Source: a virus
Taxonomy: Duplodnaviria > Caudoviricetes
IMG/VR virus record: IMGVR_UViG_3300009467_000016
Coordinates: 1 to 57,846 of that record
Reading direction: 5' to 3' (one strand)
DNA: 57,846 bases
Shown here one piece after another: positions 2,123 to 52,407 of this stretch. The notes beneath the pieces are model-generated. The model ran no database searches and was not told the DNA's origin. It saw nothing but the letters and a program-made list of their open reading frames with translations. How positions within the stretch are numbered: position 1 is the stretch's first letter; every line of letters begins with the position of its first letter. Made by a program: the position numbers and the translations under genes.

Positions 2123-2881
2123 TCATAGGAACTCCTTCAACTGCTCAATGTCGGACTCTACACGATACTTTATGTCATCGTCAAGCCTTAATGCAATAGT
2201 GCCAACACCCGTCCATGCCTCTATCTCTTGTCTGAAACGCAAGGTCTTGTGTGCAGCATCAGGGTCTAACGCTACGATAACCTGAGAATAATTACCCAAC
2301 TGTTCCATATGTGCAACACTTAAAGACGTACCAAGGATAGCCATACCTGTAAAACCTAGCTTGGCTACAGTGATAGCACTGATAACATCCTCAACTACAA
2401 CCACAGTGTCACCTGTACCTGCAAGGAAGTAGTTAGCCTTGCCAGTGTAGCGCAACCACTTAGGTTCTGCACCAGCTAAAGCCCTACCTACAGCATCAAG
2501 CATCACCCCATTGTTAAAGATAGGAAACACTGCACGTCTATCCTTGAGGTCATACATCAAGCCTTGGTCATGTAAGTCCCACTTATCCCTGAACGCATCA
2601 AGACCACTACCACTAGGCACAACATACTCAGGTAGCACCATAGCCTCAACCTTGGGCTTAGGCTTGTCTTGCTCTATCTCTTGCATCCTAGCCTGTATGT
2701 CAGCAGCAGTCATACCTACAGTGTGAACGCCACTGATCTTACACCCTAGCTTGTAGCAGTTATACAAGACAGCACCGCCTGACTTGTTAGCTGTGAAGGT
2801 ATTCTTACCACCACAATCAGGGCAATCACCTCTTACAGTGTCGCCCTCCCCTAAGTCTAAGTCTTCTATGTACTTATCCAT
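2123..2881 (-). CDS. DNA primase (Zn finger + TOPRIM)
   Basis: CPDC...C..C zinc motif; VVVEDVISA and ALDPDA TOPRIM motifs. Confidence 0.9.
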   Translation of the reverse strand: MDKYIEDLDLGEGDTVRGDCPDCGGKNTFTANKSGGAVLYNCYKLGCKISGVHTVGMTAADIQARMQEIEQDKPKPKVEAMVLPEYVVPSGSGLDAFRDKWDLHDQGLMYDLKDRRAVFPIFNNGVMLDAVGRALAGAEPKWLRYTGKANYFLAGTGDTVVVVEDVISAITVAKLGFTGMAILGTSLSVAHMEQLGNYSQVIVALDPDAAHKTLRFRQEIEAWTGVGTIALRLDDDIKYRVESDIEQLKEFL

Positions 2882-3807
2882 TATATCAAATCATCCTCTC
2901 TGTTGGATAGTGCCTTGGTAGCACCAGCCAATGTATTAACCAAGTAAGGCATCACACTCTGAGGGCTACTGTGTCCACTTACCTGCATGATACCCACAAC
3001 ATCAACGCCACGCTCCACCATCTGTGTGATAGCTGTACGGCGTAAGTCCATAGCTGTCAACTCCTTGGGTAAGCCAGCAGCCTCTTTGACGCTGTTAACT
3101 AATCCGCAAATCTCAACATCATCGTAGGGCGTGTATGCCCCAGCCCTAGCCCTAACTCTAGGGGCTACGTAGGGTAGGAACCCAAAGTCTTGCTTCTGTT
3201 GTCTAAGCATAGGCAGCAAGCCACCCTGTACAGGCAGGTGAACATCTTCACCACGTTTGCTTTGCTCTAGGTTTAGTACGCCTTTGTCTAAGTCTAATGC
3301 TCCCCACTCAAGTAAACGCATGTCACCGATACGCTGCGCCCAATGGAAAGCCATATGCACAATCAAGCCAATGCTGCGCCACTCCCAGTTGTTGTACGCT
3401 GTGTCAAGAAACTGTTTGACTTGAGGTGTAGTCCACTTGATCTTGCGGGGCTTGGCCTTGGCCCTTTGGATGAGCGACACAGGGTTTGATAGTAGTACCT
3501 CATGTCTTCTAGCTGTGTTAAGCACAATGCTTAGACAGGTAGCTATGTAGTTAGCTGCCCTTACACCGTGCTTAACTTGCCAGTAGTCGTAACCTACAGT
3601 CACATTAGAAAACTGTAGGTCTTTTAGTTTAATGTTACCTAAGAACTTACCACCTTGCACAGGGGTAACACAGGCAAACTCAAGGTTACGTTCATAGTCA
3701 TACTGTGACTTGCCACCCAAAGCTGAGAACTTAGGTGTACGCATATAGAAGTCACAGGCTTTGCGTATAGTGTGTGTACTTTTAAGTTCTTCTTGTTTAG
3801 GTGGCAT
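2881..3807 (-). CDS. int: Tyrosine recombinase/integrase
   Basis: Catalytic pattern R (AQRIGDM), K (QSKRG), xxLRR (MDLRRTA), H (SGHSS), Y (MPY). Confidence 0.9.
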   Translation of the reverse strand: MPPKQEELKSTHTIRKACDFYMRTPKFSALGGKSQYDYERNLEFACVTPVQGGKFLGNIKLKDLQFSNVTVGYDYWQVKHGVRAANYIATCLSIVLNTARRHEVLLSNPVSLIQRAKAKPRKIKWTTPQVKQFLDTAYNNWEWRSIGLIVHMAFHWAQRIGDMRLLEWGALDLDKGVLNLEQSKRGEDVHLPVQGGLLPMLRQQKQDFGFLPYVAPRVRARAGAYTPYDDVEICGLVNSVKEAAGLPKELTAMDLRRTAITQMVERGVDVVGIMQVSGHSSPQSVMPYLVNTLAGATKALSNREDDLI

Positions 3808-3808
3808 G

Positions 3809-3898
3809 TTACATCATCCCTATGGCTGCACTAACAAAAACGATAGTGATTAGTATGTAGAGTAGAAAGTCACCTACACGCTTAAAAAAGGGGTGCAT
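3809..3898 (-). CDS. Small membrane peptide (29 aa)
   Basis: MHPFFKRVGDFLLYILITIVFVSAAIGMM, GGGAG RBS upstream, abuts integrase start. Confidence 0.45.
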   Translation of the reverse strand: MHPFFKRVGDFLLYILITIVFVSAAIGMM

Positions 3899-4073
3899 AT
3901 AGCTCCCCCTTAGTTATGCATTGATTAACTAGGTATAGCTCTGTGCTGAGTAGGTCAGCCCTGTGCATGTCACCCTCCCACTGTGACTCCTCTACTGCAT
4001 TCATCAACCTCTGCCGTTCTTCTGACAGAGGTGTGAGGTGTTCTAAGTTGTATTGATTGCTTGGCATGTCCAT
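3882..4073 (-). CDS. Hypothetical early protein
   Basis: ORF with GAGGGAG RBS just downstream of a dyad repeat. Confidence 0.7.
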   Translation of the reverse strand: MDMPSNQYNLEHLTPLSEERQRLMNAVEESQWEGDMHRADLLSTELYLVNQCITKGELYAPLF

Positions 4074-4088
4074 TGGTTACTCCCTCAA

Positions 4089-4112
4089 TTAGTGTCGGAC
4101 AATCCGACGTTA
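4089..4112. repeat. Dyad repeat copy 1, TTAGTGTCGGA-CAA-TCCGACGTTA
   Basis: Read directly; intergenic. Confidence 0.95.
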
Positions 4113-4119
4113 TCAACTA

Positions 4120-4500
4120 TTACTTTACGCCACCAACACAGTTACGGCGCATAGTCCAACTAATGTTAATCTCTCCATCAGGATATGAAGTATATGCTTT
4201 CTCTAAGGCATCAACAGTCTCAAGTACTGTTTTCACCTTATCAGCCTCAGTCAGATCATCTGTATAATCAAAGTGCAAAGGCACTACAGCAATAGTATCC
4301 TCCCAATGGTCATGCTTGTAGTAATGCTCACTGCCATCAGCGTGTACTGTAGGGGATGGCATATAACCGTGCTTGTTAGGCTTGGTAGGTTTATCAATCT
4401 CAGTACGCCCATAGCAACTCTCAGTTACAGTAATGATTGCATCATGAAACGAGTAGGTCTGTATCTTGTACAGCATATCGTGTTGCATCTTGGTTCCCAT
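4120..4500 (-). CDS. Hypothetical early protein
   Basis: Start placed at ATG 4500 after a GGAGACT RBS. Confidence 0.7.
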   Translation of the reverse strand: MGTKMQHDMLYKIQTYSFHDAIITVTESCYGRTEIDKPTKPNKHGYMPSPTVHADGSEHYYKHDHWEDTIAVVPLHFDYTDDLTEADKVKTVLETVDALEKAYTSYPDGEINISWTMRRNCVGGVK

Positions 4501-5224
4501 TGGTAGTCTCCTTGTTTGTGTTAGCTGCCATAACAGCGATTGCAAAGCCACGTGGTGTGGCTGATCTGATGTTCTTAGTCTTAGCAGACTTACCGCCTAA
4601 CTTCAAGTGCTGTCGGCTGTGACCTGTCTCAGGCTCAACTGGAACCTTGGGAGGCATCACAAAGCCATTGCCTGTCCATAGGCAAGTCTTCTTAGGGTAG
4701 GCGTCACGGTCTGCAATGTAGTCAGGCCAACGTGGATGCCGTGCGTCATTCTTGGCAATGTAACCACCGTACTCGTAAGGGTGAAACGTATGGTCAGGCT
4801 TGCGCCATTTGGTAGCCAATACAGATACAGGGTTCTCAATGAAGTACGGGCAACCAAGATCATCAAACAGACCAGCACAATCAATGGCGTGTTGTGCAGC
4901 CCTCTGTTGAAACAATGGGTCAGCCTCTGCTTTCTTCTTAAACCACGCTGCCCCTGATACAGCCAGATCAGTACAAACAGGAAAGGCCATACCAAATGCT
5001 ACCTTGCGACCATAGAAACTAAAGAACATATTACTGTAAGTACTAAAGTCATGCAGGTCAGCATGTACATATCGTATTATGCCACCGCTATCAAAATGAT
5101 CTTTGACTACCTTATCTTTAGGATGCTGAATGTCAAAGGCATAGCAAATGTACCCTGCCTCTGCCCAAGGCTTGAGAGCCTCACCTGTGTAGTCGTACAG
5201 ACTGATTACGTGTTGTTTCATCAC
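4442..5224 (-). CDS. Phage C5-cytosine DNA methyltransferase-like protein
   Basis: SLYDYTG (motif I-like), FPVCTD (motif IV-like), IENP (motif VI), KKTCLW, RSATP. Confidence 0.7.
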   Translation of the reverse strand: MMKQHVISLYDYTGEALKPWAEAGYICYAFDIQHPKDKVVKDHFDSGGIIRYVHADLHDFSTYSNMFFSFYGRKVAFGMAFPVCTDLAVSGAAWFKKKAEADPLFQQRAAQHAIDCAGLFDDLGCPYFIENPVSVLATKWRKPDHTFHPYEYGGYIAKNDARHPRWPDYIADRDAYPKKTCLWTGNGFVMPPKVPVEPETGHSRQHLKLGGKSAKTKNIRSATPRGFAIAVMAANTNKETTNGNQDATRYAVQDTDLLVS

Positions 5225-5472
5225 GCTGCCTCAATCATTGCAAAGGGTACGTTGTAGATAGAACCACGCATACGCACCTGTGCTTTCTTTAAGTTAACTT
5301 TCTCAATGATACCTGCAGTACGCTTGGTCTTTTGTACTACCCAAACGTCCTGACCTACCTTGAGGCTAGCCCTACCCTTGAGGGTCTTTAAGTCATGCGC
5401 CAAGTCAATGATCTCATTGAGGTCAGCAGTGTCTAGTGCAAGCATAGCTTGTTTGATGTCAGTCAATTCCAT
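5221..5472 (-). CDS. Hypothetical protein (SH3/KOW-like C-terminus)
   Basis: GGAGACT RBS and own promoter; LKVGQDVWV...GIIEKVN. Confidence 0.75.
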   Translation of the reverse strand: MELTDIKQAMLALDTADLNEIIDLAHDLKTLKGRASLKVGQDVWVVQKTKRTAGIIEKVNLKKAQVRMRGSIYNVPFAMIEAA

Positions 5473-5507
5473 GATGTAGTCTCCTATTAAAGAATGTCCC
5501 TGCCACC

Positions 5508-5536
5508 TGTATAGCAGCAGGGGTAGCCAAAGTCAA
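5508..5536 (-). promoter_or_regulatory. Sigma70-type early promoter
   Basis: TTGACT-N17-TATACA with TGc extended -10. Confidence 0.75.
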
Positions 5537-5539
5537 CAA

Positions 5540-5773
5540 TCAGCCAGCGAAGTGACGCAAGCGGCGAGGGTTAGCCACATGACGATTAGATATCTTCTCA
5601 AGATAAATAGTACGCTTGAAGATATGTAAGGCAGTCATGGTCTTGAGGTGCTGTACACTCAAGCCACGGCTCTTAACCTTACGCTTACGGACGATACCTT
5701 TCTTACCAAGGAAGTTAAACCGAAAACCACTGGTACGGTCATTGAGGGGCTTAGTGGCGATACATGCAAACAT
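5540..5773 (-). CDS. Hypothetical basic early protein
   Basis: 77-aa ORF with GGAGACT RBS downstream of dyad repeat 2. Confidence 0.7.
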   Translation of the reverse strand: MFACIATKPLNDRTSGFRFNFLGKKGIVRKRKVKSRGLSVQHLKTMTALHIFKRTIYLEKISNRHVANPRRLRHFAG

Positions 5774-5800
5774 GAAGAGTCTCCTTATAGGTTTGCTTAG

Positions 5801-5824
5801 TTAGTGTCGGATTGTCCGACGTTA
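5801..5824. repeat. Dyad repeat copy 2 (loop TTG)
   Basis: TTAGTGTCGGATTGTCCGACGTTA; terminal TTA is the TAA stop of the upstream minus-strand gene. Confidence 0.95.
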
Positions 5825-6007
5825 AGTGTAGTCACCCTCGTAAGGGTCATAGTGATCAGGCTCAGAAGGAACGTAGGGTTCCTGTGAATACTTATAGTGC
5901 CACTCAGGGTGCTTGTCAATCAAGTCACCAATCTCAGTGTCGGCAGGGTTATACCCTATTACTTGGATGGTGCCGCACTCATCCCAAAAAATAGCTTCAA
6001 GCATCAT
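5822..6007 (-). CDS. Hypothetical acidic early protein
   Basis: Start placed at ATG 6007 after GGAGA. Confidence 0.65.
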   Translation of the reverse strand: MMLEAIFWDECGTIQVIGYNPADTEIGDLIDKHPEWHYKYSQEPYVPSEPDHYDPYEGDYT

Positions 6008-6368
6008 CAATCTCCACATTGAAGGTAGATATAAAAGGTTTACCTGTGTCACTGTGTAGTGCAAGGTAGGCTATGTCACTCTTATACAAAGGCTCATCGT
6101 CCTTGTCAACAAAGGTAGCAGCCTTGTAAGGATTGTACTTGGCAAGGTTGCCCCTATAGTTAAACAAGGGGATACGCTCTATGAGTTCACCCCTAGCGAA
6201 GGCGTGTACGTTCTTCTTACCCTCACGCAACACCCTAGCACGGCCAGCAGGTTGCACAACATAGGTCACATTCTTGAGCGTGGCGTTGCAAACATGTGCA
6301 ATCACCTTGCCCTTGTGCCGCATAGAGAAAACCTTCTTGTGCAAGTTAAAGTATATCTCAACTCTCAT
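5997..6368 (-). CDS. Conserved phage hypothetical protein
   Basis: YFNLHKKVFS...GRARVLREGKKNVHAF...YNPYK pattern recalled from phage early genes. Confidence 0.75.
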   Translation of the reverse strand: MRVEIYFNLHKKVFSMRHKGKVIAHVCNATLKNVTYVVQPAGRARVLREGKKNVHAFARGELIERIPLFNYRGNLAKYNPYKAATFVDKDDEPLYKSDIAYLALHSDTGKPFISTFNVEIDDA

Positions 6369-6567
6369 CGTCTATCTCCCAAAACATTTCCTGCCAATCA
6401 AAGTCAGTATAACCTGACATTATAAACTCACGCTCAGAGGGTGAAGCATTAGGGAAAGCGTTCTGTGCTAACTCTCCCCGCTCCCATGATGCAATTTGTG
6501 CAGCGGTTACGTCAATCTCTTTGGTGGCAGTGTTACCTGTCAGGGGTGATGTTCTGGTGATCTTCAT
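6358..6567 (-). CDS. Hypothetical early protein
   Basis: GGAGACT RBS; overlapping operon arrangement. Confidence 0.75.
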   Translation of the reverse strand: MKITRTSPLTGNTATKEIDVTAAQIASWERGELAQNAFPNASPSEREFIMSGYTDFDWQEMFWEIDDES

Positions 6568-6724
6568 GATTAGTCTCCATTTTAGTTGGTGTAATATTGT
6601 TATACCAGAAGCGGTTCTCTATGTCAAACAAAGTGAAACTTCTGGTGACTTCTCTTAACCATTTGCTACGCCAAGCTTTATCTGGACGCCTAGCGTAGCG
6701 GTCACGTTTATTTAGGTGAAGCAT
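6533..6724 (-). CDS. Hypothetical protein
   Basis: 63-aa ORF on operon strand immediately after dyad repeat 3; weak RBS. Confidence 0.45.
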   Translation of the reverse strand: MLHLNKRDRYARRPDKAWRSKWLREVTRSFTLFDIENRFWYNNITPTKMETNHEDHQNITPDR

Positions 6725-6892
6725 TTAATAGTTAGTGTCGGATTGTCCGACGTTAAGGGGCTGAACATCTTTATACTCACCAATCTTGTAGTTTGCCAAG
6801 AGCCAGTTAGCAAAATACTCAGCATCATTTTTACTCAAGTGCTGCATGAGTTCACCCATGATTTCACGATGAAGGCGTTGTGTCTTGTTCAT
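6725..6892 (-). CDS. Hypothetical protein whose C-terminus (NVGQSDTN) is encoded by dyad repeat 3
   Basis: Start at ATG 6892 coupled to upstream stop (TAATG). Confidence 0.65.
   Translation of the reverse strand: MNKTQRLHREIMGELMQHLSKNDAEYFANWLLANYKIGEYKDVQPLNVGQSDTNY
6732..6755. repeat. Dyad repeat copy 3 (loop TTG)
   Basis: Read directly. Confidence 0.95.
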
Positions 6893-7053
6893 TATGCAAT
6901 ACTCCATGATACAGCCCACCATTGACCATCAATGGGAAGGTCTAGCGTTTCTCTTTCTTCTTGCGTAAAGGTATCATAAGTTTCTGAACACCAGCCCCAA
7001 CTGTTAGACCAACATAAATTTGCATCCTTTACACATACAATTATCCAATTCAT
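6892..7053 (-). CDS. Small Trp/Cys-rich protein (53 aa; not in ORF track)
   Basis: MNWIIVCVKDANLCWSNSWGWCSETYDTFTQEERETLDLPIDGQWWAVSWSIA; ATGA and TAATG couplings on both sides. Confidence 0.65.
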   Translation of the reverse strand: MNWIIVCVKDANLCWSNSWGWCSETYDTFTQEERETLDLPIDGQWWAVSWSIA

Positions 7054-7247
7054 AGGTTTAGCCCTTCCAATGTAGATTGCAACTCTTTTAGGGTCTCTCT
7101 TAACTGCTCCTCAGCAGTAGCACATCTTTTGTGATTGTCAAAGTCATCCACAATGTTACCTGCCAACGCTCCAAGAGAATCAGCCAAGTGGCTAACCTCA
7201 TGCAACTTGTCCCGCATGTGCAGGGCTTGATCCCAAGTGTCAAACAT
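7050..7247 (-). CDS. Hypothetical early protein
   Basis: AGGAG RBS just downstream of dyad repeat 4. Confidence 0.7.
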   Translation of the reverse strand: MFDTWDQALHMRDKLHEVSHLADSLGALAGNIVDDFDNHKRCATAEEQLRETLKELQSTLEGLNL

Positions 7248-7266
7248 CTGTTTATTCTCCTAGTAA

Positions 7267-7290
7267 TTAGTGTCGGATTGTCCGACGTTA
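7267..7290. repeat. Dyad repeat copy 4 (loop TTG)
   Basis: Read directly; intergenic. Confidence 0.95.
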
Positions 7291-7295
7291 AGTAA

Positions 7296-8042
7296 TCAGT
7301 CTTGCACAAAGCCACTGGTGTCTTTCTTAGCCCTGCCCTTAGCGTATAGGCTCACCATCACACCGTCAGGATCAAGAAACCGCAGGTCATCAGCATCACC
7401 ACTGATAACAGGAACACCCATAAACATGCGAGGTATAACGTCAACACTGCGCCACACTACAGCCATGTTCATGCCCTTATCCATAGCGATCTTGACTTGC
7501 TTGGCGTACAAAGGATTAGCAGTGCTGTAGCTAAAAGTCAAATGGTAGTTCTTGATATGGTCAGTCTTGCGATTGGCAATCTTGGTGTAGTCATACCATT
7601 GCACCTGTGGGAACATATCAAAGATATTGGCAAAGGAACCTATAGGCACACCATACCTAGTATTGTGATTAGATACAGGTATACGTTCCCAACGTATGTC
7701 GGATGTACCGTTGAGCCGAATAACAGGTATCACACCTTGCTTGTCGCAGTACTTGATAAACTTAGTAACATCAACAACAAGTTGCGCCATAAAGCCATCA
7801 CGATCAGCGGCAAACCACGCAGTCTTTTTAGCACGTGCCGCTTGTACTGTGTTCATAGCACCACGCCCTGCAGTGAATAAACAACCGTCAATACAGCCAG
7901 CAATCTCAGCATTGGCACAAACATTGATGCCAGCACTTTTCCAAGGCTGCATATACATAATAGCGGTTTCATACTTGTCACCGTTACCTTTTACTGTTTT
8001 TGCATCAGCACCAGATGCAATTAGCTTACCACGAAAAGCCAT
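7296..8042 (-). CDS. GP88-like protein with Cys cluster (radical-SAM-like)
   Basis: VCANAEIAGCIDGCL, RLNGTSD, YDYTK, GDADDLRFLD motifs. Confidence 0.7.
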   Translation of the reverse strand: MAFRGKLIASGADAKTVKGNGDKYETAIMYMQPWKSAGINVCANAEIAGCIDGCLFTAGRGAMNTVQAARAKKTAWFAADRDGFMAQLVVDVTKFIKYCDKQGVIPVIRLNGTSDIRWERIPVSNHNTRYGVPIGSFANIFDMFPQVQWYDYTKIANRKTDHIKNYHLTFSYSTANPLYAKQVKIAMDKGMNMAVVWRSVDVIPRMFMGVPVISGDADDLRFLDPDGVMVSLYAKGRAKKDTSGFVQD

Positions 8043-8061
8043 ATATTTAGTCTCCATATAT

Positions 8062-8085
8062 TTAGTGTCGGATTATCCGACGTTA
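8062..8085. repeat. Dyad repeat copy 5 (loop TTA)
   Basis: Loop supplies the TAA stop of the upstream gene. Confidence 0.95.
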
Positions 8086-8504
8086 GCATACTCTAGGTCA
8101 CAATCGTTAGCCAAGTCAATTAAGTATGGCTTAACTACTTCATACCAGTTATGTTCGCCTATGTCAAATCCATCACTGTGATCGTCATGAATAAGTTGAA
8201 GCTTGTACAATAATCTACCTTGCTCATAGCTTAAAGCCTCAACACCCATAGATGCAGCCACAGCGTTAAGCACAGGTTGCACACCGCAAGAGCGATTAAA
8301 AGTTGAATATTCCAAAACACCCTTGCCCTCAAAGGTATGCTTGTAGTGTTCATCATCAATAAATGCACCAACAATGCACTTGTTACCCTCATGGCCCCTG
8401 TAAGCACAATCTGAACCACCGTATTCACTAGGTGTACTCATAGAAGGCTTTTCCATTTGAGCAAAGTGAGCGATTGCCTTATCAAACATTTCTTGAAGTG
8501 TCAT
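8073..8504 (-). CDS. Hypothetical early protein
   Basis: CAYRG...KCIVG...LQLIHD pattern; GGAGACT RBS. Confidence 0.75.
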   Translation of the reverse strand: MTLQEMFDKAIAHFAQMEKPSMSTPSEYGGSDCAYRGHEGNKCIVGAFIDDEHYKHTFEGKGVLEYSTFNRSCGVQPVLNAVAASMGVEALSYEQGRLLYKLQLIHDDHSDGFDIGEHNWYEVVKPYLIDLANDCDLEYANVG

Positions 8505-8525
8505 AGTTTTAGTCTCCACATAAAA

Positions 8526-8549
8526 TTAGTGTCGGATTATCCGACGTTA
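8526..8549. repeat. Dyad repeat copy 6 (loop TTA)
   Basis: Between promoter 8588-8616 and RBS. Confidence 0.95.
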
Positions 8550-8587
8550 AAGGGTCAATCAATTTAGCCCATGACTAGCCCTACACC

Positions 8588-8616
8588 TTGATAGCATAGG
8601 ACTAGGCAGAAGTCAA
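8588..8616 (-). promoter_or_regulatory. Sigma70-type early promoter
   Basis: TTGACT-N17-TATCAA with TGc extended -10. Confidence 0.7.
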
Positions 8617-8622
8617 ATCAAC

Positions 8623-8835
8623 TCAGATGCTGTAAGAATAACGGTTACGCAATTCATCTGAGTACGTTAGGGCTTGATCTATATAAAACCCCTCTTTTTC
8701 TACATTGTGATCTGCCATAGCACGTGCAGCGTTATGACAATCTTTAATGATATGGCGTAACGCCTCAATATCACAATCGCTTGCGTTCCTGCGCCATGTT
8801 TCAAAGTCCTCTTTTGTTGCATAATCAGGTCTCAT
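8623..8835 (-). CDS. Hypothetical early protein
   Basis: GGGGGAGACT RBS; ATGA overlap with upstream gene. Confidence 0.75.
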   Translation of the reverse strand: MRPDYATKEDFETWRRNASDCDIEALRHIIKDCHNAARAMADHNVEKEGFYIDQALTYSDELRNRYSYSI

Positions 8836-9008
8836 AAGTCTCCCCCCATTAAAATCTGTTTCAATTCAGTAACAGATACCCCTGCGATTTGGGCTAGTTC
8901 CGACAACAGCATATCAGGATTGTTATCATAAACATCCTTTAACGCATCATTACGGCGTACTATAGCCGCTTCCTTAGCTTCCCTGCATACCTTGCCAAAC
9001 TCAGTCAT
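8832..9008 (-). CDS. Small HTH-like protein
   Basis: Start placed at ATG 9008; NPDMLLSELAQIAGVSVTELKQIL resembles a helix-turn-helix. Confidence 0.6.
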   Translation of the reverse strand: MTEFGKVCREAKEAAIVRRNDALKDVYDNNPDMLLSELAQIAGVSVTELKQILMGGDL

Positions 9009-9027
9009 TGTTTTAGTCTCCTCAAAA

Positions 9028-9051
9028 TTAGTGTCGGATTGTCCGACGTTA
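9028..9051. repeat. Dyad repeat copy 7 (loop TTG)
   Basis: Between promoter 9068-9096 and RBS. Confidence 0.95.
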
Positions 9052-9067
9052 ACGTTGCCTTGCAATA

Positions 9068-9096
9068 TGTATAGCATAGGGTGTCGCTTATGTCAA
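9068..9096 (-). promoter_or_regulatory. Sigma70-type early promoter
   Basis: TTGACA-N17-TATACA with TGc extended -10. Confidence 0.8.
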
Positions 9097-9158
9097 ACCA
9101 GACGGCATCCCATTACTATCATGCGTATGTGCGCGTTCCCGGCGCGTACGTAAGGCAC

Positions 9159-9192
9159 AAAAAAGCCCCGCAAACTCGAAAGCTTGCAGGGC
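9159..9192 (-). terminator. Rho-independent terminator
   Basis: Minus strand GCCCTGCAAGCT-TTCG-AGTTTGCGGGGC followed by T6. Confidence 0.85.
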
Positions 9193-9196
9193 GTGA

Positions 9197-9220
9197 TTAG
9201 TGTCGGATTATCCGACCTTA
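9197..9220. repeat. Dyad repeat copy 8 (loop TTA, ...CCTTA variant)
   Basis: Terminal TTA is the stop of gene 9218-9874. Confidence 0.95.
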
Positions 9221-9874
9221 TTTCTTGGTTTGGGGACGCTTGTGTTTCTGCTGCTGCTCAAGTGTATTCTTAAGCGTCAAAAGTACATCGGCAATTTTGA
9301 TGTTATGCTTGGCAGCCGTTGCCAGCGCGTTGTCTACAATGCTTTGCGCCGATACGGTTTCAGTTTTCTTGCTTGTCGCGCTAGTTGCAGGGCCTTGCTT
9401 TGATGTTTTCTTTTGTGCCTCTTTAATTGCCTTTTTACACTTTGATACACCCATTGCATCAAGGCTTTCTGTATCGTCCATTTTTGTGACTACAGACCAA
9501 TTTTTGGCGATTAGAATAGCGTCACTAACGTCCTGCTTTGACATGAAACCGATAGAGCTGGTTTCGCGATATGTTGCAAAGCTTGCTTCGCCCCGTGCCT
9601 TGATGTCGCCGCCTGCAGCGATCCAATTCTTGCGTATCTCAATCAAGTTATCGCCAATAGTTTTCCAATATGACAAGCCAGTCTTTGCGTTCTCGGCAAG
9701 CTTTTCGGTGTTATCAATTACCGTCGAGAATAGTGGGCTATTGAGTGTAGACAAGTCAGGCTTTTCAGTTTTTGCCTTACGCTCTTTTGCAGTTGTCTTT
9801 ATGTTAACGACTTTTGTGTTGGTCTTTGTTGCTGTCTTTGAAGTCTTTGTGGTTTTCTTTGCAGTGTTAGCCAT
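9218..9874 (-). CDS. Lys/Thr-rich first early protein
   Basis: Start placed at ATG 9874 after GGAGACT; flanked by two dyad repeats and a terminator. Confidence 0.8.
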   Translation of the reverse strand: MANTAKKTTKTSKTATKTNTKVVNIKTTAKERKAKTEKPDLSTLNSPLFSTVIDNTEKLAENAKTGLSYWKTIGDNLIEIRKNWIAAGGDIKARGEASFATYRETSSIGFMSKQDVSDAILIAKNWSVVTKMDDTESLDAMGVSKCKKAIKEAQKKTSKQGPATSATSKKTETVSAQSIVDNALATAAKHNIKIADVLLTLKNTLEQQQKHKRPQTKK

Positions 9875-9925
9875 TTGATTAGTCTCCATTGGGTTAAATC
9901 AACACCGACACGGTGCCGATAAGCT

Positions 9926-9954
9926 TTTGTAATCTTAATCGGTGTTTAGGTCAA
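9926..9954 (-). promoter_or_regulatory. Putative early promoter
   Basis: TTGACC-N17-TACAAA. Confidence 0.5.
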
Positions 9955-9973
9955 TACACTTTCTGAAAAAAGA

Positions 9974-9997
9974 TTAGTGTCGGATAATCCGACCTTA
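9974..9997. repeat. Dyad repeat copy 9 (loop TAA, ...CCTTA variant)
   Basis: Read directly. Confidence 0.95.
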
Positions 9998-10393
9998 ATT
10001 GATTGGCGTTAGTCGTGTCGGTGTTGTTTCTTTTGAGGTATACTTTTTTGAGCCATTATAGAGACAAGCTTTTGAGTTAAGCATTGGTGCACAAATGTTT
10101 CGTTTCTCTTTCACTTGTTCAAAGTATAGGAAAACAAGCCTATTTTGACGATATATTAATAGATAATCAGTAATAATATTGAGTAATAACAATGGTTTAC
10201 ACTGTAAAACCCCTGCATAATGATAGAACTGCCTTGAAAAGCACCCCCTGCGACGGCCACCCCCCACCCGTACTGTACGTATATATGTACTCTGCAACAC
10301 ACGGGGTTTCTCAATAGCACAACCTTAAGTATAACCCCAAAGAAAGACGTTTTATGCTTGATCCCGGCTGCATATATGTGCTAGACTACAAAT

Positions 10394-10409
10394 TGTTTCA
10401 CGTGAAACA
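10394..10409. promoter_or_regulatory. parS: parS site 1
   Basis: Perfect TGTTTCACGTGAAACA palindrome in the divergent intergenic region. Confidence 0.88.
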
Positions 10410-10535
10410 TTCCTGATGAGTGAATTTATATGCAATGTATACTGGTTAGTCCCAAATAGTGGAACAAGTTAGCTATTAGTGTGCTTTTTATGCAACACTC
10501 TTAAAGAAAAACACATAGCTAGGGTATTTTTGGGG

Positions 10536-10563
10536 TTGACATGGGGTGTTATTTGTGTAAAAC
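10536..10563 (+). promoter_or_regulatory. Putative promoter of the late arm
   Basis: TTGACA-N16-TAAAAC(TA); a similar TTGACT-N16-TAAAAC(TA) lies at 10730-10757. Confidence 0.55.
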
Positions 10564-10580
10564 TACGGTAGTAGGTAGTA

Positions 10581-10750
10581 GTTAAACTTTAAAGTTTAAT
10601 TATCATGTTAAAACAAAAAAACACTTAACTAAAAGTTTAACTTACTACTTCGCATTAAGAAAAGTTTAACTTTAAAGTTTAACTACAGTTAATTATTTCT
10701 TATTATTTGTATAAATTACAACAAAACACTTGACTTAAAGTTTAACATAA
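10581..10750. repeat. AT-rich region with AAAGTTTAA(C/T) iterations
   Basis: Five direct copies, one inverted copy, and the 18-bp palindrome TTAAACTTTAAAGTTTAA at 10582-10599. Confidence 0.8.
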
Positions 10751-10760
10751 GTAAAACTAT

Positions 10761-11015
10761 ATGAAAATAGACAAACAAGAATCTGTACTAGAGACATTTT
10801 ACCTAGCGTTAGCTTCCAGTAACAACAAGGCGTTACATGAAGTTCACATCCCTATGTCTGATGTATTTTATGTACGAGCAGCTATTGAGGCTGACACTGG
10901 GGTTAGGTATACGTTAGACCACGTTGAGCGTTCAATGTACTTAGAGGGTCACTTAGGTCGTAAGGACGTATTAGACCCTGATAGACCAAGAGGATATTGT
11001 ACTTACGATGCCTAG
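10761..11015 (+). CDS. Hypothetical protein, first gene of late arm
   Basis: 84-aa ORF overlapping the next gene. Confidence 0.7.
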   Translation: MKIDKQESVLETFYLALASSNNKALHEVHIPMSDVFYVRAAIEADTGVRYTLDHVERSMYLEGHLGRKDVLDPDRPRGYCTYDA

Positions 11016-17060: not shown

Positions 17061-18516
17061 GAATGTTTCACGTGAAACAGTGCCAGCCACAGTTATACCT
17101 GCACCGTTTGACGTAGAACAAGCACAGAATATTGTATTTCAACCTAATCCCGGCCCTCAGACTCAATATCTAGCGTCAGGAGAGCGCGAAGTACTTTACG
17201 GTGGGGCAGCAGGTGGCGGTAAAAGCTACGCTACACTCGCTGACCCCTTACGTAACTTAAACCATCACGCATTTAGTGGGTTGCTTGTGCGCCACACTAC
17301 AGAGGAACTTAGGGAACTTATTCAGAAAAGCCAAGAGTTGTACCCTAAAGCAATTCCGGGCATTAAGTGGTCAGAGCGTAAGTCTCAATGGGTTACACCT
17401 AGAGGTGGTCGCATTTGGATGAGTTACCTAGATAAAGACCAAGACGTTATGCGCTACCAAGGACAGGCGTTTAACTACATTGCATTTGATGAGTTAACTC
17501 AATGGAATACACCGTTTGCGTGGAACTACATGCGCTCACGTTTACGTAGTGCTTCACCTGAGTTAGGCTTGTACATGAGGGCTACTACAAACCCCGGCTC
17601 TATAGGCCACGCTTGGGTTAAGAAGATGTTTATTGACCCGTCTGAGCCTAACAAGCCTTTTTGGGCTACCGATATTGAAACAGGGAAGACCTTAGCGTAC
17701 CCTAAAGGTCACACTAAAGAAGGTCAACCTTTGTTTAAGCGTAGGTTTATACCTGCAAGTTTGTTTGACAATCCATACTTAGCTGACAGTGGCGATTATG
17801 AGACTATGCTGCTATCTATGCCAGAGCATCAACGTAAGCAACTACTAGAAGGAAACTGGGATGTTAATGAGGGTGCAGCCTTCCCTGAGTTTAATAGACA
17901 AATTCACGTTGTTGACCCTTATGACATTCCTAATAGCTGGGCGAAGTTCAGAGCTTGCGATTACGGTTACGGCAGTTGGACAGGTGTTGTGTGGTTTGCC
18001 GTATCACCCTCTGAGCATCTTGTAGTTTATAGAGAAATGTATGTCACCAAAGTTACTGCTACTGACTTAGCGGATTTAATATTAGAGGCAGAGTCAGATG
18101 ATGGCACCATAAGATACGGCGTGTTGGACTCGTCCCTTTGGCATAAAAGAGGTGACACTGGTCCTAGTCTAGCGGAGCAAATGATTATGAAGGGCTGTCG
18201 CTGGAGACCTTCTGATCGTTCTAAAGGTTCTAGGGTGTCAGGCAAAAATGAGATACACCGCCGTTTGCAGGTAGACGAGTTTACTGAGGAACCCCAACTC
18301 GTATTCTTTTCTACCTGCACCAACTGCATAGCACAGATACCTAGCATACCTTTAGATAAGCGTAACCCTGAAGACGTAGATACAAACGCAGAAGATCACT
18401 TGTACGATGCTTTAAGGTATGGTATCATGACAAGACCTAGAAGTTCCTTGTGGGATTTCAACCCTTCAACACAGAGAAGCGGTTTTCAAGCTGCTGATCC
18501 AGTATTCGGATATTAA
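16933..18516 (+). CDS. terL: Terminase large subunit (start uncertain)
   Basis: Walker A YGGAAGGGKS, Walker B IAFDE, ATTNPG, RNase H-like CDYG and DHLYDALRY. Confidence 0.95.
   Translation: MSENVKQLLESNVSLPKGSKKRSRSTKRLKKKGQDTTPVQPSKNVSRETVPATVIPAPFDVEQAQNIVFQPNPGPQTQYLASGEREVLYGGAAGGGKSYATLADPLRNLNHHAFSGLLVRHTTEELRELIQKSQELYPKAIPGIKWSERKSQWVTPRGGRIWMSYLDKDQDVMRYQGQAFNYIAFDELTQWNTPFAWNYMRSRLRSASPELGLYMRATTNPGSIGHAWVKKMFIDPSEPNKPFWATDIETGKTLAYPKGHTKEGQPLFKRRFIPASLFDNPYLADSGDYETMLLSMPEHQRKQLLEGNWDVNEGAAFPEFNRQIHVVDPYDIPNSWAKFRACDYGYGSWTGVVWFAVSPSEHLVVYREMYVTKVTATDLADLILEAESDDGTIRYGVLDSSLWHKRGDTGPSLAEQMIMKGCRWRPSDRSKGSRVSGKNEIHRRLQVDEFTEEPQLVFFSTCTNCIAQIPSIPLDKRNPEDVDTNAEDHLYDALRYGIMTRPRSSLWDFNPSTQRSGFQAADPVFGY
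17064..17079. promoter_or_regulatory. parS: parS site 2 (inside TerL N-terminal extension, encodes VSRET)
   Basis: Perfect TGTTTCACGTGAAACA. Confidence 0.88.
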
Positions 18517-48021: not shown

Positions 48022-48059
48022 AAAAAAGGGGCGGTCACAACGACTGCCCCTCTTGCTTT
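48022..48059. terminator. Bidirectional terminator at the convergence of the two arms
   Basis: A6-GGGGCGGTC-ACAAC-GACTGCCCC-TCTTGCTTT. Confidence 0.85.
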
Positions 48060-48074
48060 GTTTCACGTGAAACA
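48059..48074. promoter_or_regulatory. parS: parS site 3
   Basis: Perfect TGTTTCACGTGAAACA between the terminator and the stop codon at 48076. Confidence 0.88.
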
Positions 48075-51420: not shown

Positions 51421-51765
51421 CTAGCAGTTGCCCTTAGTTTTGGTGAAAGCACTGAGTGTAAGTACATTACCCTCTGCTGTATAGGAAGATTGTGGTGTAT
51501 CGTCCATAGGCACTTGGTTCTCTTCTAGTAGACGCTCTATCTTCTCTTCTAGTGCAAGCTTTAGACCTTCATAGATTTCATCATCGTCATCATTAAGCAA
51601 CTCAAACAAACCAATCATAGCTAGACCTACACCCATAGCATCTGTTAATTGATCGTCAGTCAATTCGTGATCGTCACTCTTGCAGATACAAGTAGCGATC
51701 TGTCCATTACCCATAGGCTTGATTAGTATTGCAATCTCATCATCGTCTAGTGTGTATGGCATCAA
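51421..51765 (-). CDS. Hypothetical acidic protein
   Basis: 114-aa ORF ending TKTKGNC. Confidence 0.75.
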   Translation of the reverse strand: MMPYTLDDDEIAILIKPMGNGQIATCICKSDDHELTDDQLTDAMGVGLAMIGLFELLNDDDDEIYEGLKLALEEKIERLLEENQVPMDDTPQSSYTAEGNVLTLSAFTKTKGNC

Positions 51766-52205
51766 GTCTTCCTTTTTGTTTTAAGTGGTATCTTAGTCTG
51801 TGTAACATACTTTCCCGGCTCTGTCAACCACCCTTGAGGTATTAGTCTGTGTGAGTACAAGAAGTCATTTTTTTCACACCAATCACAGTATCTACTCTTA
51901 GCACCCTTGTAGAGTTTAGCTTTAGCGTTACTGAATACAAAGCGTATGTCTAACTCAGGGTGCTGCCTTCTTACTTCCACATGCTTGCGCCTGTCTTCAC
52001 TGTCAAAGATACCCTTGGTCTCAATAAAGATACCGTTGTCCAACTGAAAGTCAGGCGTGTAAGTACGATAACGTAAGTCCTCCCACTCTATTTTAAGTAG
52101 CTCATACCTTACCTTTTTTTGGCACTCAGACAAAACAAGAGCAGTCTGTTTTTCAAGACCGCTCCTGTACTTGGCTTTAAGGTGTAGCCTCTTAGGTTTA
52201 GGCAT
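51762..52205 (-). CDS. T7 endonuclease I-like Holliday junction resolvase
   Basis: YRSGLE, YTPDF, IETKG, DRRKH, DIRFVF, WCEK. Confidence 0.92.
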   Translation of the reverse strand: MPKPKRLHLKAKYRSGLEKQTALVLSECQKKVRYELLKIEWEDLRYRTYTPDFQLDNGIFIETKGIFDSEDRRKHVEVRRQHPELDIRFVFSNAKAKLYKGAKSRYCDWCEKNDFLYSHRLIPQGWLTEPGKYVTQTKIPLKTKRKT

Positions 52206-52407
52206 CTTCTTCTGGGATAGTCTCGTCTTCTAGTGCCTGTTTAAGCTTGTCTACTAAAAGCACCCCCATGTTAGACACACTAGCTAATTGAAACTCTAGC
52301 TGTCGCTTCATTGTTGCGCTATATTGTATCTCTGCTAACAAAGCAATCTGTGTTTCGTTAAAGTCTTCTGAGTCGTATTCAATATCGTTTAGTGTCACTT
52401 TAGCCAT
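52198..52407 (-). CDS. Hypothetical protein
   Basis: MAKVTLNDIEYDSEDF..., GAGG RBS. Confidence 0.7.
   Translation of the reverse strand: MAKVTLNDIEYDSEDFNETQIALLAEIQYSATMKRQLEFQLASVSNMGVLLVDKLKQALEDETIPEEDA

Follow-up and report, generated by a model that had tools for sequence, protein, structure and literature searches.

The early region of an uncultured marine phage of the HMO-2011 type, whose complete record of 57,846 bp is here called the window, raises the question of what a series of short dyad repeats in the operon upstream of a tyrosine integrase gene is for, and what reads them. The earlier note on this DNA had listed nine copies and none elsewhere, and this was confirmed. All nine (starting at 4089, 5801, 6732, 7267, 8062, 8526, 9028, 9197 and 9974) match the 24-bp pattern on the plus strand with no mismatches, and raising the tolerance to three mismatches yields no further copies in the window. 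The core GTCGGA-N3-TCCGAC occurs only at these nine places in the 57,846-bp record, in which the reversed control of the core has no occurrences; shuffled sequence contains a mean of 0.01 copies of the 24-bp pattern, and nine were reached in none of 100 shuffles. The genes of the array are encoded on the minus strand, and in their sense the element reads TAA(C/G)-GTCGGA-NNN-TCCGAC-ACTAA, with a 6-bp stem and a loop that varies among copies. The repeats are restricted to one operon.

In the direction of the genes, all features being on the minus strand, the array starts with repeat copy 1 (9974..9997), a position filled in every lineage examined. It lies 19 nt before sigma-70-like hexamers found by eye (TTGACC, 9949-9954, and TACAAA, 9926-9931), upstream of the first early gene (9218..9889, 223 aa). 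Copy 2 (9197..9220) forms the stop codon of this gene and abuts an intrinsic terminator (9165..9192) with a 12-pair stem and a T run, which is kept in relatives. Next comes a sigma-70-like promoter P1 (TTGACA-17-TATACA, 9068..9096), found by eye and not flagged by the promoter scan, and conserved in L026, L031, L021, L005, L081 and L171. The interval 9051-9197, earlier described as lacking genes, does hold this strong terminator and sigma-70-like hexamers. Copy 3 (9028..9051), followed by an RBS, heads the unit of 8832-9008 and 8623-8835. A further sigma-70-like promoter found by eye, P2 (TTGACT-17-TATCAA, 8588..8616), precedes copy 4 (8526..8549), the head of gene 8073-8504. Copy 5 (8062..8085), whose loop triplet TAA is the stop codon of that gene at 8073, heads a GP88-family gene (7296-8042), and copy 6 (7267..7290) heads the unit of 7050-7247, 6892-7053 and 6725-6922. 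Copy 7 (6732..6755) lies within the 3' end of the last of these, a 65-aa ORF that runs through it and ends in ..NVGQSDTNY, and heads the unit from 6533-6724 to 5822-6019. Copy 8 (5801..5824) provides a stop codon and heads the unit from 5540-5773 to 4120-4500, which includes a methylase-like gene (4442-5221) and a second terminator-like hairpin (5498..5522). Copy 9 (4089..4112) is the last one before 3882-4073, int (2881..3807) and the replication genes. The distance from this repeat to int is 282 bp, in line with the earlier estimate of about 280 bp. The placement of copies at gene boundaries was likewise borne out: besides the stop at 8073 and the C-terminus NVGQSDTN, the stop codons at 5822 and 9218 are the first TAA of the element, and an SD-like GGAG with an ATG follows within 30 nt of six of the nine copies. 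The count of up to five genes per interval was too high, as at most four ORFs of at least 45 aa are present.

The same note had proposed 11-bp arms that pair fully on one strand and are recognized as a strand-specific hairpin. The arms pair over 10 positions; the two G-T pairs it described are present in seven of the nine copies, the copies at 9197 and 9974 having a T-C mismatch instead. As single-stranded DNA, the two strands differ by about 1 kcal/mol (minimum free energy -5.6 for the plus versus -5.4 kcal/mol for the minus strand; ensemble energy -6.91 versus -5.69 kcal/mol). Moreover, the wobble-compatible flank in relatives is on the other strand or missing, and the loop triplets at orthologous sites switch between reverse-complement forms (TTG, TAA or TTA before 3882-4073; CAA, TAA or TTA before 5540-5773). 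Recognition of one particular strand is not what these data point to.

The repeat belongs to a wider family of short palindromes that recurs in many uncultured relatives. Scanning with a 16-base motif revealed 42 viral contigs, 28 with genes common to the window and 14 without. A search with the profile of the first gene alone yielded 34 loci, and palindromes of this kind are present in all 34. One of these, L025, was already known; among the 33 new loci, 23 contain perfect GTCGGA-N3-TCCGAC in at least two copies, three contain another perfect 6-3-6 core in at least two copies, and seven have imperfect, single or 4-nt-spacer palindromes. Co-occurrence was also counted in 21 loci that include int and extend at least 5 kb upstream. 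At least two sites are present in seven of them, and a homologue of the first gene was seen in four of these seven; two of the remaining three loci end before the position of the gene, and the third, L140, carries an analogue at the corresponding position (hhalign E 0.0027, probability 11%). The first gene was found in none of the 14 int-bearing loci without an array, and CRP-207 has neither the sites nor the gene. The layout, site(s)-promoter-first gene-site-terminator-site followed by gene units, is conserved: it recurs in class A, class B, the L055/L060/L064 types, L099, L140 and L171, and is kept across lineages with first-gene proteins less than 30% identical.

Within a genome the core is largely uniform; among lineages it differs, and at least six types were found. 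In addition to GTCGGA/TCCGAC, these are GACGGA/TCCGTC (11 of 11 sites in L099), GTAGGA/TCCTAC (L051, L091 and L140), (C/A)TCGGA/TCCGAG and GATGGA/TCCATC, as well as cores with a 4-nt spacer in L053 and L054. Changes in one arm are usually matched on the opposite arm. Among 122 distinct sites, three core pairs have changed in both arms (17, 16 and 4 cells), with a covariation score of 0.260 versus 0.080 in shuffles, in a set chosen at no more than one core mismatch, which partly builds in the high share of paired positions. Around the sites, L081 and the window are 81-90% identical, and one stretch of 3,905 nt, spanning two sites, reaches 90.5%. In L081 the flanks TAAC and ACTAA are retained, the central 9 nt are replaced in all eight sites, and 45 of 45 upstream bases match before the homologues of 5540-5773 and 8073-8504. 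Among the metagenome contigs fetched, seven have the L081-type core together with a very different first-gene relative (29-39% identical to profile members over 44-103 aa). In L171 the first-gene relative is a 296-aa ORF between sites, and the next genes have approximately 82-84% DNA identity to class A. Mixed core types within a locus (L051, L075, L168 and L172) count against a phage regulator as the reader of the sites. Uniformity within a genome could also arise by gene conversion rather than by selection by a reader, and the spacer of L053 and L054, longer by 1 nt, and the inside-out core of L081 fit a hairpin more readily than a rigid dimer bound to duplex DNA.

In the first-gene protein, the patch S117-K118-Q119-D120 changes with the core. 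The form S[KR]QD is present in all 24 loci with GTCGGA as the commonest core, in proteins only 29-32% identical to that of the window. SFQD accompanies (A/C)TCGGA..TCCGAG in L063 and L067, two loci with proteins 87-89% identical to that of L060; [ST]R[YF]D occurs with GA(T/C)GGA, DRRD with GACGGA/TCCGTC, DKNK or STND with xTAGGA, and KKRI with the L081-type core. The exceptions are L073 (SRQD with GACGGA, two sites) and L076-L080 (SRQD with mixed GACGGA/TCCGAC and GTCGGA sites), and the covariation was counted on lineages, not on independent events. As the site and the protein change together in related phages, the sites are most likely docking sites of the first early protein.

This protein, with K/T-rich tails and a helical central domain, has no match in Pfam, PHROG, NCBIfam or PDB and, as far as sequence comparison goes, is a new family with no known relatives. 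It has no recognisable DNA-binding fold and no HTH. The model of its central domain (pLDDT 81.4) is a helical bundle with the best PDB match at E 0.62, and the whole-protein model gave no PDB match below E 2.6. The homodimer model scored 0.80, the best of three controls scoring 0.00, with at least 91% of contacts in agreement between runs and a partner pLDDT of at least 72. Of 30 proteins solved as one-chain pairs, 20 reached the mark of 0.80, against 1 of the 23 known as single chains, a calibration that is only rough, since the alignment was supplied by the author. Three of the four patch residues (S117, Q119 and D120) fall within the modelled dimer interface, which counts against docking by this protein. 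The HTH-like 58-aa gene 8832-9008, given as an example of a regulator in the earlier note, is not the likely one: in four of six close relatives its place is taken by a gene unrelated to it beyond the N-terminal ~15 residues, and the sites are retained.

Operators are the best supported in kind of the options raised earlier, with 9218-9889 as the likely regulator. The first-gene protein is a candidate that probably reads the sites; that it reads them on duplex DNA, as operator or roadblock, is a tentative proposal to which we give slightly less than an even chance. For the fuller explanation, that the sites are a stoperator-like dyad operator or roadblock of a dimeric phage regulator and, together with the RBS, also PeSL-like joints, the chances appear evenly balanced. 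We infer that the sites are bound by protein, that DNA rather than RNA is the target, and that the outcome is regulatory. In class B, L055, L060, L064, L058 and L140 the first site precedes the -35 hexamer, the placement expected if it is read on DNA. In class A the first site is itself preceded by a conserved TATAAT and may therefore be transcribed, which counts against the DNA reading.

The alternative that survives best, unlikely as we consider it, is that the early transcripts carry the element as an RNA hairpin, which the first-gene protein again reads and which serves for antitermination, as a translational operator, or as a processing or stability signal before the RBS. An RNA role fits as well, given that the hairpin is stable (-8.3 kcal/mol, z -4.5) and that 35 of 48 class A sites precede an SD, at a median of 10 nt. 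One site stands immediately before the strong terminator after the first gene, and a first early gene with its cognate hairpin and a terminator resembles the arrangement of lambda N/nut; at least five lineages, however, have the first site upstream of the -35 of the first promoter. Compensatory arm changes and the change from a 3- to a 4-nt loop would be natural for a hairpin, but the recurrent half-site variant leaves a T-T or A-A stem mismatch in 19 of 20 single-mismatch copies, and 97 of 122 sites have no pair at position 6/24 of the extended dyad. The absence of an HTH from the protein and a RegA-type cluster in the atlas listing (0.90, a lead only) also favour RNA. Known readers of RNA hairpins usually read the loop, whereas the loop triplets here are not conserved and flip to the reverse complement, and in class B the whole element is found before genes in both orientations.

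That the repeats are recombination linkers without a trans-acting reader, or in the strong form attC-like sites of the neighbouring tyrosine integrase, is improbable as a full account, although PeSL-like module exchange at the repeats is itself supported by comparison of gene orders. Gene order or content, scored by the downstream neighbour, varies at 10 of 10 repeat-bearing junctions versus 8 of 16 without a repeat (Fisher p 0.0095). In relatives, the P2 flank with the repeat precedes four different genes, site-flanked slots hold three mutually unrelated genes of 220-255 aa, and the GP88-family gene occurs in at least four neighbourhoods; module swaps and repeat-bounded insertions are observed. 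Among the products of the phage are a T7-type endonuclease I and a PD-(D/E)XK nuclease, and recombination between sites has been published for PeSLs and Cluster O dyad repeats. The junction test may only show that heads of units tolerate insertions better than overlapping genes. Gene gain and loss, whose breakpoints the earlier note suggested checking, also occurs away from the repeats. Pure linkers would need neither a lineage-specific palindromic core that switches in concert between unchanged flanks nor a covarying protein. As for the strong form, int gives weak generic tyrosine-recombinase hits only (31 bits, where the cut-off is 220), and none of its hits exceeds the curated cut-off of a family; it is co-directional with the array, and a similar int is retained in relatives without repeats. 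The element is 24 bp long with a 6-bp stem and loops unlike among copies. Integron-like Int-driven shuffling, the other half of the earlier proposal, is not supported: it fails the defining features of an integron, and int is not of the integron type.

Selfish REP-like miniature palindromes, spread in the phage genome with little function, are a very improbable explanation. The repeats are multi-copy, intergenic, mostly uniform per genome and different among relatives, one copy lies within an ORF end, and CGTC (class A) and GTAG (class B), beside or in the stem, are the two head motifs of REP super-families. However, a stem of 8-9 bp, a loop of 4-5 nt and a CCA tail characterise CGTC REPs, none of which applies here, a Pfam scan of 40 window proteins turned up no Y1 transposase, and the sites occupy orthologous positions in one operon, with the first-gene layout kept across lineages. 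Hairpin promoters like those of N4, which would serve an unrecognised RNA polymerase or specificity factor of the phage, share with the repeat the 6-bp stem and 3-nt loop of N4 early promoters, and the sites are directly before the RBS with a conserved part that stops ~11 nt past the loop centre, but this account is hardly credible given that Pfam and PHROGs show no RNA polymerase domain in any of the ten largest proteins, RNA polymerase has no occurrences in the HMO-2011-type paper, sigma-70-like promoters are present, the class B element occurs in both orientations, and the sites covary with a 223-aa protein modelled as a dimer.

Under the preferred reading, docking of an early regulator at the sites, the product of 9218-9889, the first gene of the leftward early operon, would be a dedicated regulator and the repeats its cis-acting sites. 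A symmetric homodimer, as modelled, would read the dyad core, most probably as duplex DNA. Autoregulation would come from the site or sites ahead of its own promoter together with the one that follows its stop codon, and the seven sites lying from P1 to int would serve as operators or roadblocks that host RNA polymerase, moving leftward, would have to cross to reach int and the replication genes. The outcome could be early shut-off in lytic growth, silencing in a lysogen, or both; no prophage copy was found in 185,579 species genomes, so that lysogeny of this lineage is only tentative. The stoperators of Cluster A mycobacteriophages follow the same logic as proposed for these sites, and the joining of modules at sites, described for PeSLs, is proposed here too. 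As a by-product, the site and the Shine-Dalgarno region form 40-50 bp of near-identity heading every unit, through which recombination between phages joins and swaps 'site-RBS-gene' modules.

The 24-bp pattern occurs exactly nine times, always on the + strand (starts at 4089, 5801, 6732, 7267, 8062, 8526, 9028, 9197 and 9974), against a mean of 0.01 in shuffled sequence. Its core, GTCGGA-N3-TCCGAC, is absent from the rest of the 57,846-bp record, a complete virus with terminal repeats, so that both the count and the confinement claimed in the earlier note were reproduced. The closest cultured relatives of the window are HMO-2011-type podophages: CRP-207 aligns at 71.5% identity across 14% of the query; for CRP-2, CRP-603 and HMO-2011 the similarity falls on the integrase gene int (2881-3807, - strand). 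Genes of the - strand run from 9889 down to 1 and then onward at the far end of the record. Read in the sense of these genes, the element is TAA(C/G)-GTCGGA-NNN-TCCGAC-ACTAA, with a 6-bp stem and, in most copies, no T run. Six copies are followed within the next 30 nt by a GGAG-type ribosome site and an ATG, and the copy at 6732 by an ATG with no ribosome site; the copy at 9197 lies after the stop codon of the first gene (9218-9889, - strand), abutting a 12-pair intrinsic terminator, and the copy at 9974 lies ahead of the first-gene promoter region. Units headed by a site comprise one to four overlapping or abutting genes, with the repeat 5' of the ribosome-binding site. All nine copies have the same orientation, and all 48 sites of the close relatives that keep the same 24-mer (class A) have the same flank polarity in gene sense. 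No promoter hexamers are found inside the 24-mer, and a promoter consensus scan of 3700-10900 returned 14 promoter-like sites (14.6 expected), none at a repeat; by eye, sigma-70-like hexamers accompany three of the nine copies, 10-40 nt upstream of two and 19 nt downstream of one.

The first repeat lies, together with the first-gene promoter, between the two members of an inverted pair, AACACCGACACG at 9902-9913 and CGTGTCGGTGTT at 10013-10027. The leader holds a third ACACCGA; the pair and ACACCGA have GTGTCGG in common with the repeat half-site. The 16-bp palindrome TGTTTCACGTGAAACA, which we take to be the chromosomal parS consensus, has three perfect copies (10394-10409, 17064-17079 and 48059-48074; 0.01 expected), one of which sits some 400 bp from the first repeat, within the divergent control region; in the related contig L026 a copy follows the first-gene terminator. 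Five copies of AAAGTTTAAC fall within 166 bp at 10581-10746, in the AT-rich region before the rightward operon (seven in the whole window, 0.28 expected), and this cluster may be an iteron or promoter array.

The proposal that the arms pair fully, by means of two G-T wobbles, on one strand only, with its hint that the element may be recognized as a strand-specific hairpin, found no support. The two strands fold near-equally as single-stranded DNA (MFE -5.6 vs -5.4, ensemble -6.91 vs -5.69 kcal/mol), the extra G-T pairs exist in only seven of the nine copies, the stem-extending flank of relatives is on the other strand or does not pair, and position 6/24 of the extended dyad is unpaired at 97 of 122 sites; the wobble idea was rejected on these fold energies and on the flanks and unpaired positions of the relatives. 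Loops at 48 sites in ten class A contigs are TAA (19), CAA (13), TTA (10), TTG (5) and CGA (1), a set that, without the single CGA, is closed under reverse complement, and orthologous sites before the gene at 3882-4073 have the loop TTG, TAA or TTA. The centre therefore appears to flip rather than to be read strand-specifically.

Scanning viral contigs for 16 specified bases yielded 42 loci, 28 with window genes and 14 with none by protein similarity; by a rough estimate, the 14 unrelated single-copy loci are about as many as chance would give for 16 specified bases. Dense TCCGAC/GTCGGA half-site arrays of iteron- or operator-like appearance were seen in L004, L009, L014, L015, L024, L027, L038 and L040, contigs that have no protein in common with the window. 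In more distant relatives (class B), the element is sTAs-TGTCGGA-N3-TCCGACA-sTAs and stands before genes in either orientation. A search with the first-gene profile gave 34 loci, all 34 with such palindromes, and an integrase search gave 80. Throughout these collections each lineage has its own core, for the most part the same at all sites of a genome: GACGGA/TCCGTC at 11 of 11 sites in L099, GTAGGA/TCCTAC in L051, L091, L093 and L140, (C/A)TCGGA/TCCGAG in L063 and L067, GATGGA/TCCATC in L075, and GTCCTAC-N-GTAGGAC in L081, with mixed types in L051, L075, L168 and L172. The sister lineage of L053 (positions 3713-4797, three of three copies) and L054 (3722-4810, two of two) keeps the same arms around a 4-nt spacer, GTCGGA-CTGA/CAGA-TCCGAC, which is a concerted change in spacer length. 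Over 122 distinct sites, three core pairs are changed on both sides (17, 16 and 4 cells), and the covariation score is 0.260, against 0.080 when shuffled and at most 0.078 with the partner slid; the set consists of sites with at most one core mismatch, by which the paired percentage is partly built in. Likewise, the "invariance" of the inner GGA/TCC is an artefact of a search pattern that required it, and in L081 it is changed.

The arrays are organized around the first gene. Class A, class B, the L055, L060 and L064 types and the contigs L099, L140 and L171 share one arrangement: one or two sites stand ahead of a sigma-70-like promoter and the first gene, whose stop codon is marked by a further site; a terminator, another site and the units follow in that order. 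In class B and in the L055, L058, L060, L064 and L140 types, the first site precedes the -35 hexamer; L140 has two sites in tandem, and the second stops 5 nt short of the -35, counted from the 15-nt core. Site arrays are present at seven of the 21 int loci with at least 5 kb upstream and absent from the other 14; the first gene could be detected at four of the seven array loci and at none of the 14 array-free loci (counts that are not phylogenetically independent), and two of the seven end before the first-gene position. In L140 that position is taken by a 252-aa analogue whose C-terminal motif is similar (hhalign E 0.0027, probability 11%). The cultured CRP-207 has neither sites nor first gene.

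The first-gene protein has no match in Pfam, PHROG, NCBIfam or PDB sequences, none by tblastn among 50,697 phage records, and none when the family profile was compared with PDB sequences and all 14 family members with Pfam; an atlas search produced no more than leads. Its family is represented in at least 163 sequence clusters, none annotated. The whole-protein model has pLDDT 63, and that of the central domain, a helical bundle, 81.4; neither matched a PDB structure at E <=0.001. Weak structural matches to HEPN, CheA-P1, TetR, POU and sigma proteins were not used, and reading the protein as a HEPN RNase was dropped, the family having no conserved histidine in the central domain. The protein is predicted to form a homodimer, with a model score of 0.80, the best of three controls scoring 0.00; among proteins of solved structure, 20 of 30 same-chain pairs and one of 23 single chains attain this mark. 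Homodimer runs agreed in at least 91% of contacts, with a partner pLDDT of at least 72. No prophage carrying the system came to light in genome_contigs, where the 21-base class A motif had 0 matches and the first-gene profile a single spurious one of 19 aa.

The most conserved stretch of the family includes S117-K118-Q119-D120, and this patch differs among relatives together with the core. It is S[KR]QD in all 24 loci with GTCGGA as the commonest core, whose first-gene proteins are just 29-32% identical to that of the window. The patch is SFQD in L063 and L067 (87-89% identical to L060), where the outer core has changed as well. GA(T/C)GGA goes with [ST]R[YF]D in L074, L075 and L079, GACGGA/TCCGTC with DRRD in L099, and xTAGGA with DKNK and STND in L051 and L168; L081-type proteins have KKRI. 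Exceptions are L073 and L076-L080. The site motif thus appears, from sequence comparison, to change together with its candidate cognate protein, a descriptive and phylogenetically uncorrected pattern. Since three of the four patch residues lie inside the modelled dimer interface, the patch is less readily seen as a recognition helix.

A core switch between near-isogenic genomes is seen in L081, whose integrase is 96% identical and which aligns to the window at 81-90% identity. At eight of eight sites the flanks TAAC and ACTAA are retained and the central 9 nt replaced. Two of these sites lie inside one 3,905-nt stretch of 90.5% identity, and at two junctions, those ahead of the homologues of 5540-5773 and 8073-8504, the 45 bases upstream match throughout. 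The L081 contig stops short of the first gene; its core type was found at 20 loci in a metagenome-contig scan, seven of which have a best first-gene-family match just 29-39% identical over 44-103 aa. In L171 that match is a 296-aa ORF between sites, and the next genes have about 82-84% DNA identity to class A. A changed core and a divergent first gene within an otherwise similar early region indicate that core and first gene were exchanged together.

From these observations, we consider it probable that the first-gene protein reads the sites. They may quite possibly act as operators or roadblocks on duplex DNA, a reading adopted tentatively. By analogy, the functional model that comes closest is that of the stoperators of Cluster A mycobacteriophages with L5 gp71-type repressors (PMC9283540, PMC6550527). 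As described there, stoperators resemble the sites in having many short intergenic copies that point along the direction of transcription in an integrase-encoding phage, in a motif that differs between related phages together with its cognate protein (here a candidate one), and in a proposed block to elongation as well as initiation (PMC9283540, PMC6550527). Stoperators are, however, asymmetric 13-mers spread genome-wide and bound by a monomer with an HTH and a stoperator domain (PMC9283540, PMC6550527), whereas the sites are dyads confined to one early operon and the putative reader is modelled as a dimer; the protein showed no similarity to stoperator repressors. The nearest published anatomy is the 17-bp dyad of Cluster O mycobacteriophages, TGTTCGG-N3-CCGAACA, 7-3-7 against 6-3-6 here and with a variable triplet in both orientations in each case (PMC4351075). 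There too, numerous copies occupy the short spaces between genes in a single leftward block, and recombination between copies explains indels; unlike the array here, the copies number more than 30, one third of which lie within genes, and the cores are invariant across five close genomes (PMC4351075). The authors suggested a dimeric regulatory protein, and no cognate protein was put forward from evidence (PMC4351075). Here, one particular protein is singled out as the candidate reader by the lineage-specific cores, the conserved arrangement around its gene and the covariation of patch and core. IncP plasmids offer a further parallel, as one dimeric regulator (KorB or KorA) serves about a dozen dispersed palindromic operators at varied promoter distances. 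Dispersed palindromic sites and a dimeric protein, in our case putative operators and a candidate regulator modelled as a dimer, are common to both; the first-gene protein showed no similarity to ParB/KorB or to HTH proteins.

An RNA-level role of the element seems unlikely, though it has a counterpart in lambda N and nut, where the product of the first early gene acts with a cognate hairpin, a terminator lies directly downstream, and protein and site vary together. The window has the same elements: a first early gene, a hairpin, a terminator downstream, and protein and site that differ together among relatives. Yet lambda has two nut sites against nine here, the loops here are unconserved, and several lineages have their first site ahead of the promoter; N is a short arginine-rich peptide, whereas the first-gene protein is modelled as a folded dimer. 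RNA contigs of relatives cover parts of the region and give no demonstration of transcription.

We give little credence to a role of the element purely as a linker or as an integron-like recombination site, although genes do vary around it. Of the cassette shuffling proposed in the earlier note, indels and replacements at the repeats stood, as a modest enrichment from non-independent events, and an integron-like action of Int did not. In a breakpoint check across 13 loci, the downstream neighbour varied at 10 of 10 site junctions and at 8 of 16 site-free ones (p 0.0095), an automated count in which at least one junction was misclassified (the copy inside the ORF at 6725-6922 was scored as repeat-free); an earlier hand count had given no indel enrichment at repeats. 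Single small genes are also gained or lost at plain gene boundaries (e.g., 6892-7053 and 5997-6368), and unit heads may simply tolerate insertions better. Gene-order maps of the 13 loci show one promoter flank with its site preceding four different genes, site-flanked slots holding three mutually unrelated genes of 220-255 aa, and small genes inserted directly 3' of sites. A GP88-family gene occurs in at least four neighbourhoods, preceded in six of seven mapped loci by a site, each with the local core type. Two unit gene families are named after right-arm genes of mycobacteriophage L5, Phage_L5_gp82 (5997-6368, E 7e-31) and GP88 (7296-8042, E 2e-36), and a 143-aa ORF at 838-1269 matches Na_Pi_cotrans (E 1e-16) over about one profile repeat.

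Identity between copies reaches past the ribosome-binding site, over 40-50 bp, and the replication block encodes a T7-type endonuclease I (51762-52205, E 1e-46) adjoined by a PD-(D/E)XK nuclease (52400-53278, E 6e-5), types that can act on cruciforms and short homologies. With such shared identity and nucleases, homologous exchange suffices for the swaps. The 58-aa gene at 8832-9008 and an unrelated 76-90-aa replacement in L026, L031 and L005 have only the N-terminal ~15 residues in common (MTEFGK.C..AK), which places that exchange point just inside the coding region, outside the repeat. The stretch is present in 20 of 24 listed sequencing runs as Logan contigs (k=31); in one metatranscriptome and three DNA runs these are short and break at repeats. 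Three repeat-touching joints (4083>8060, 5824>9258 and 7291>9106), known from contigs only and with short sides of 24-27 nt that are the repeat itself, show neither deletions nor circles.

T4-type PeSLs serve, by analogy, as the model for the shuffling side. Both are repeated motifs that span the gap between the stop codon of one gene and the SD and start codon of the following one, with a stem-loop between stop codon and SD, and both are concentrated ahead of small uncharacterised genes in a plastic early region where copy exchange shuffles modules; a PeSL combines a strong sigma-70 promoter with a terminator stem-loop (PMC2839356), and the repeat here has no promoter hexamers. The integrase is an ordinary phage type rather than that of an integron: its Pfam match is Phage_integrase only, and the NCBIfam matches of 2881-3807 are weak and generic, the best scoring 31 bits against a cut-off of 220 and none attaining the curated cut-off of a family. 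An integron integrase adjoins and diverges from its array, with attI and a cassette promoter; int is co-directional with the array and downstream of it. The attC sites are long imperfect palindromes (~57-141 bp) with extrahelical bases, recombined as a folded single strand, unlike a 24-bp element with a 6-bp perfect stem, a 3-nt loop and strands that fold almost equally.

Selfish repeats and hairpin promoters are less probable still. The likeness to REP elements is limited to the letters CGTC and GTAG, the latter in class B flanks: REP CGTC families have an unpaired head, stems of 8-9 bp, loops of 4-5 nt and a CCA tail, whereas the element here has CGTC overlapping its 6-bp stem, a 3-nt loop and no CCA tail, and no Y1 (RAYT) transposase was found among 40 window proteins scanned in Pfam. 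The 6-bp stem and 3-nt loop do fit the geometry of N4-type hairpin promoters (5-7-bp stem, 3-nt loop), but no RNA polymerase family, such as the giant virion enzyme of N4, was found by Pfam and PHROGs among the ten largest proteins.

A bolder extension of the idea that the protein reads the sites, and one we regard as a long shot, is that the first-gene protein and the dispersed cores would form an exchangeable, immunity-like specificity system in which all sites of a genome are actively rewritten in concert. The rewriting agent could, for instance, be the protein itself, or the phage junction-resolving and recombination enzymes acting on extruded hairpins and copying the core from site to site, and the same active process would move 'site-RBS-gene' modules. 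If true, this would be a cassette system independent of the integrase.

HMO-2011-type phages are one of the dominant marine phage groups (PMC9038755), and the feature is real and widespread in a subgroup of this abundant type. The terms 'promoter', 'RNA polymerase', 'palindrom', 'hairpin' and 'stem-loop' each have 0 occurrences in the main paper on the group, and its searchable literature, supplementary tables aside, makes no mention of the repeats; nothing is in print on early-gene control in these phages, and the repeats are new for the group. The site-flanked slots mark where these phages load and swap accessory genes. A 223-aa protein, a 24-bp site and natural specificity variants together make a concrete and cheap test system, and the data may give a function to an unannotated family of at least 163 sequence clusters. 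Finally, the concerted switch of eight dispersed sites in a genome otherwise 81-90% identical poses the question of how dispersed operator sets evolve, one that extends to stoperators and to the dyad repeats of Cluster O.
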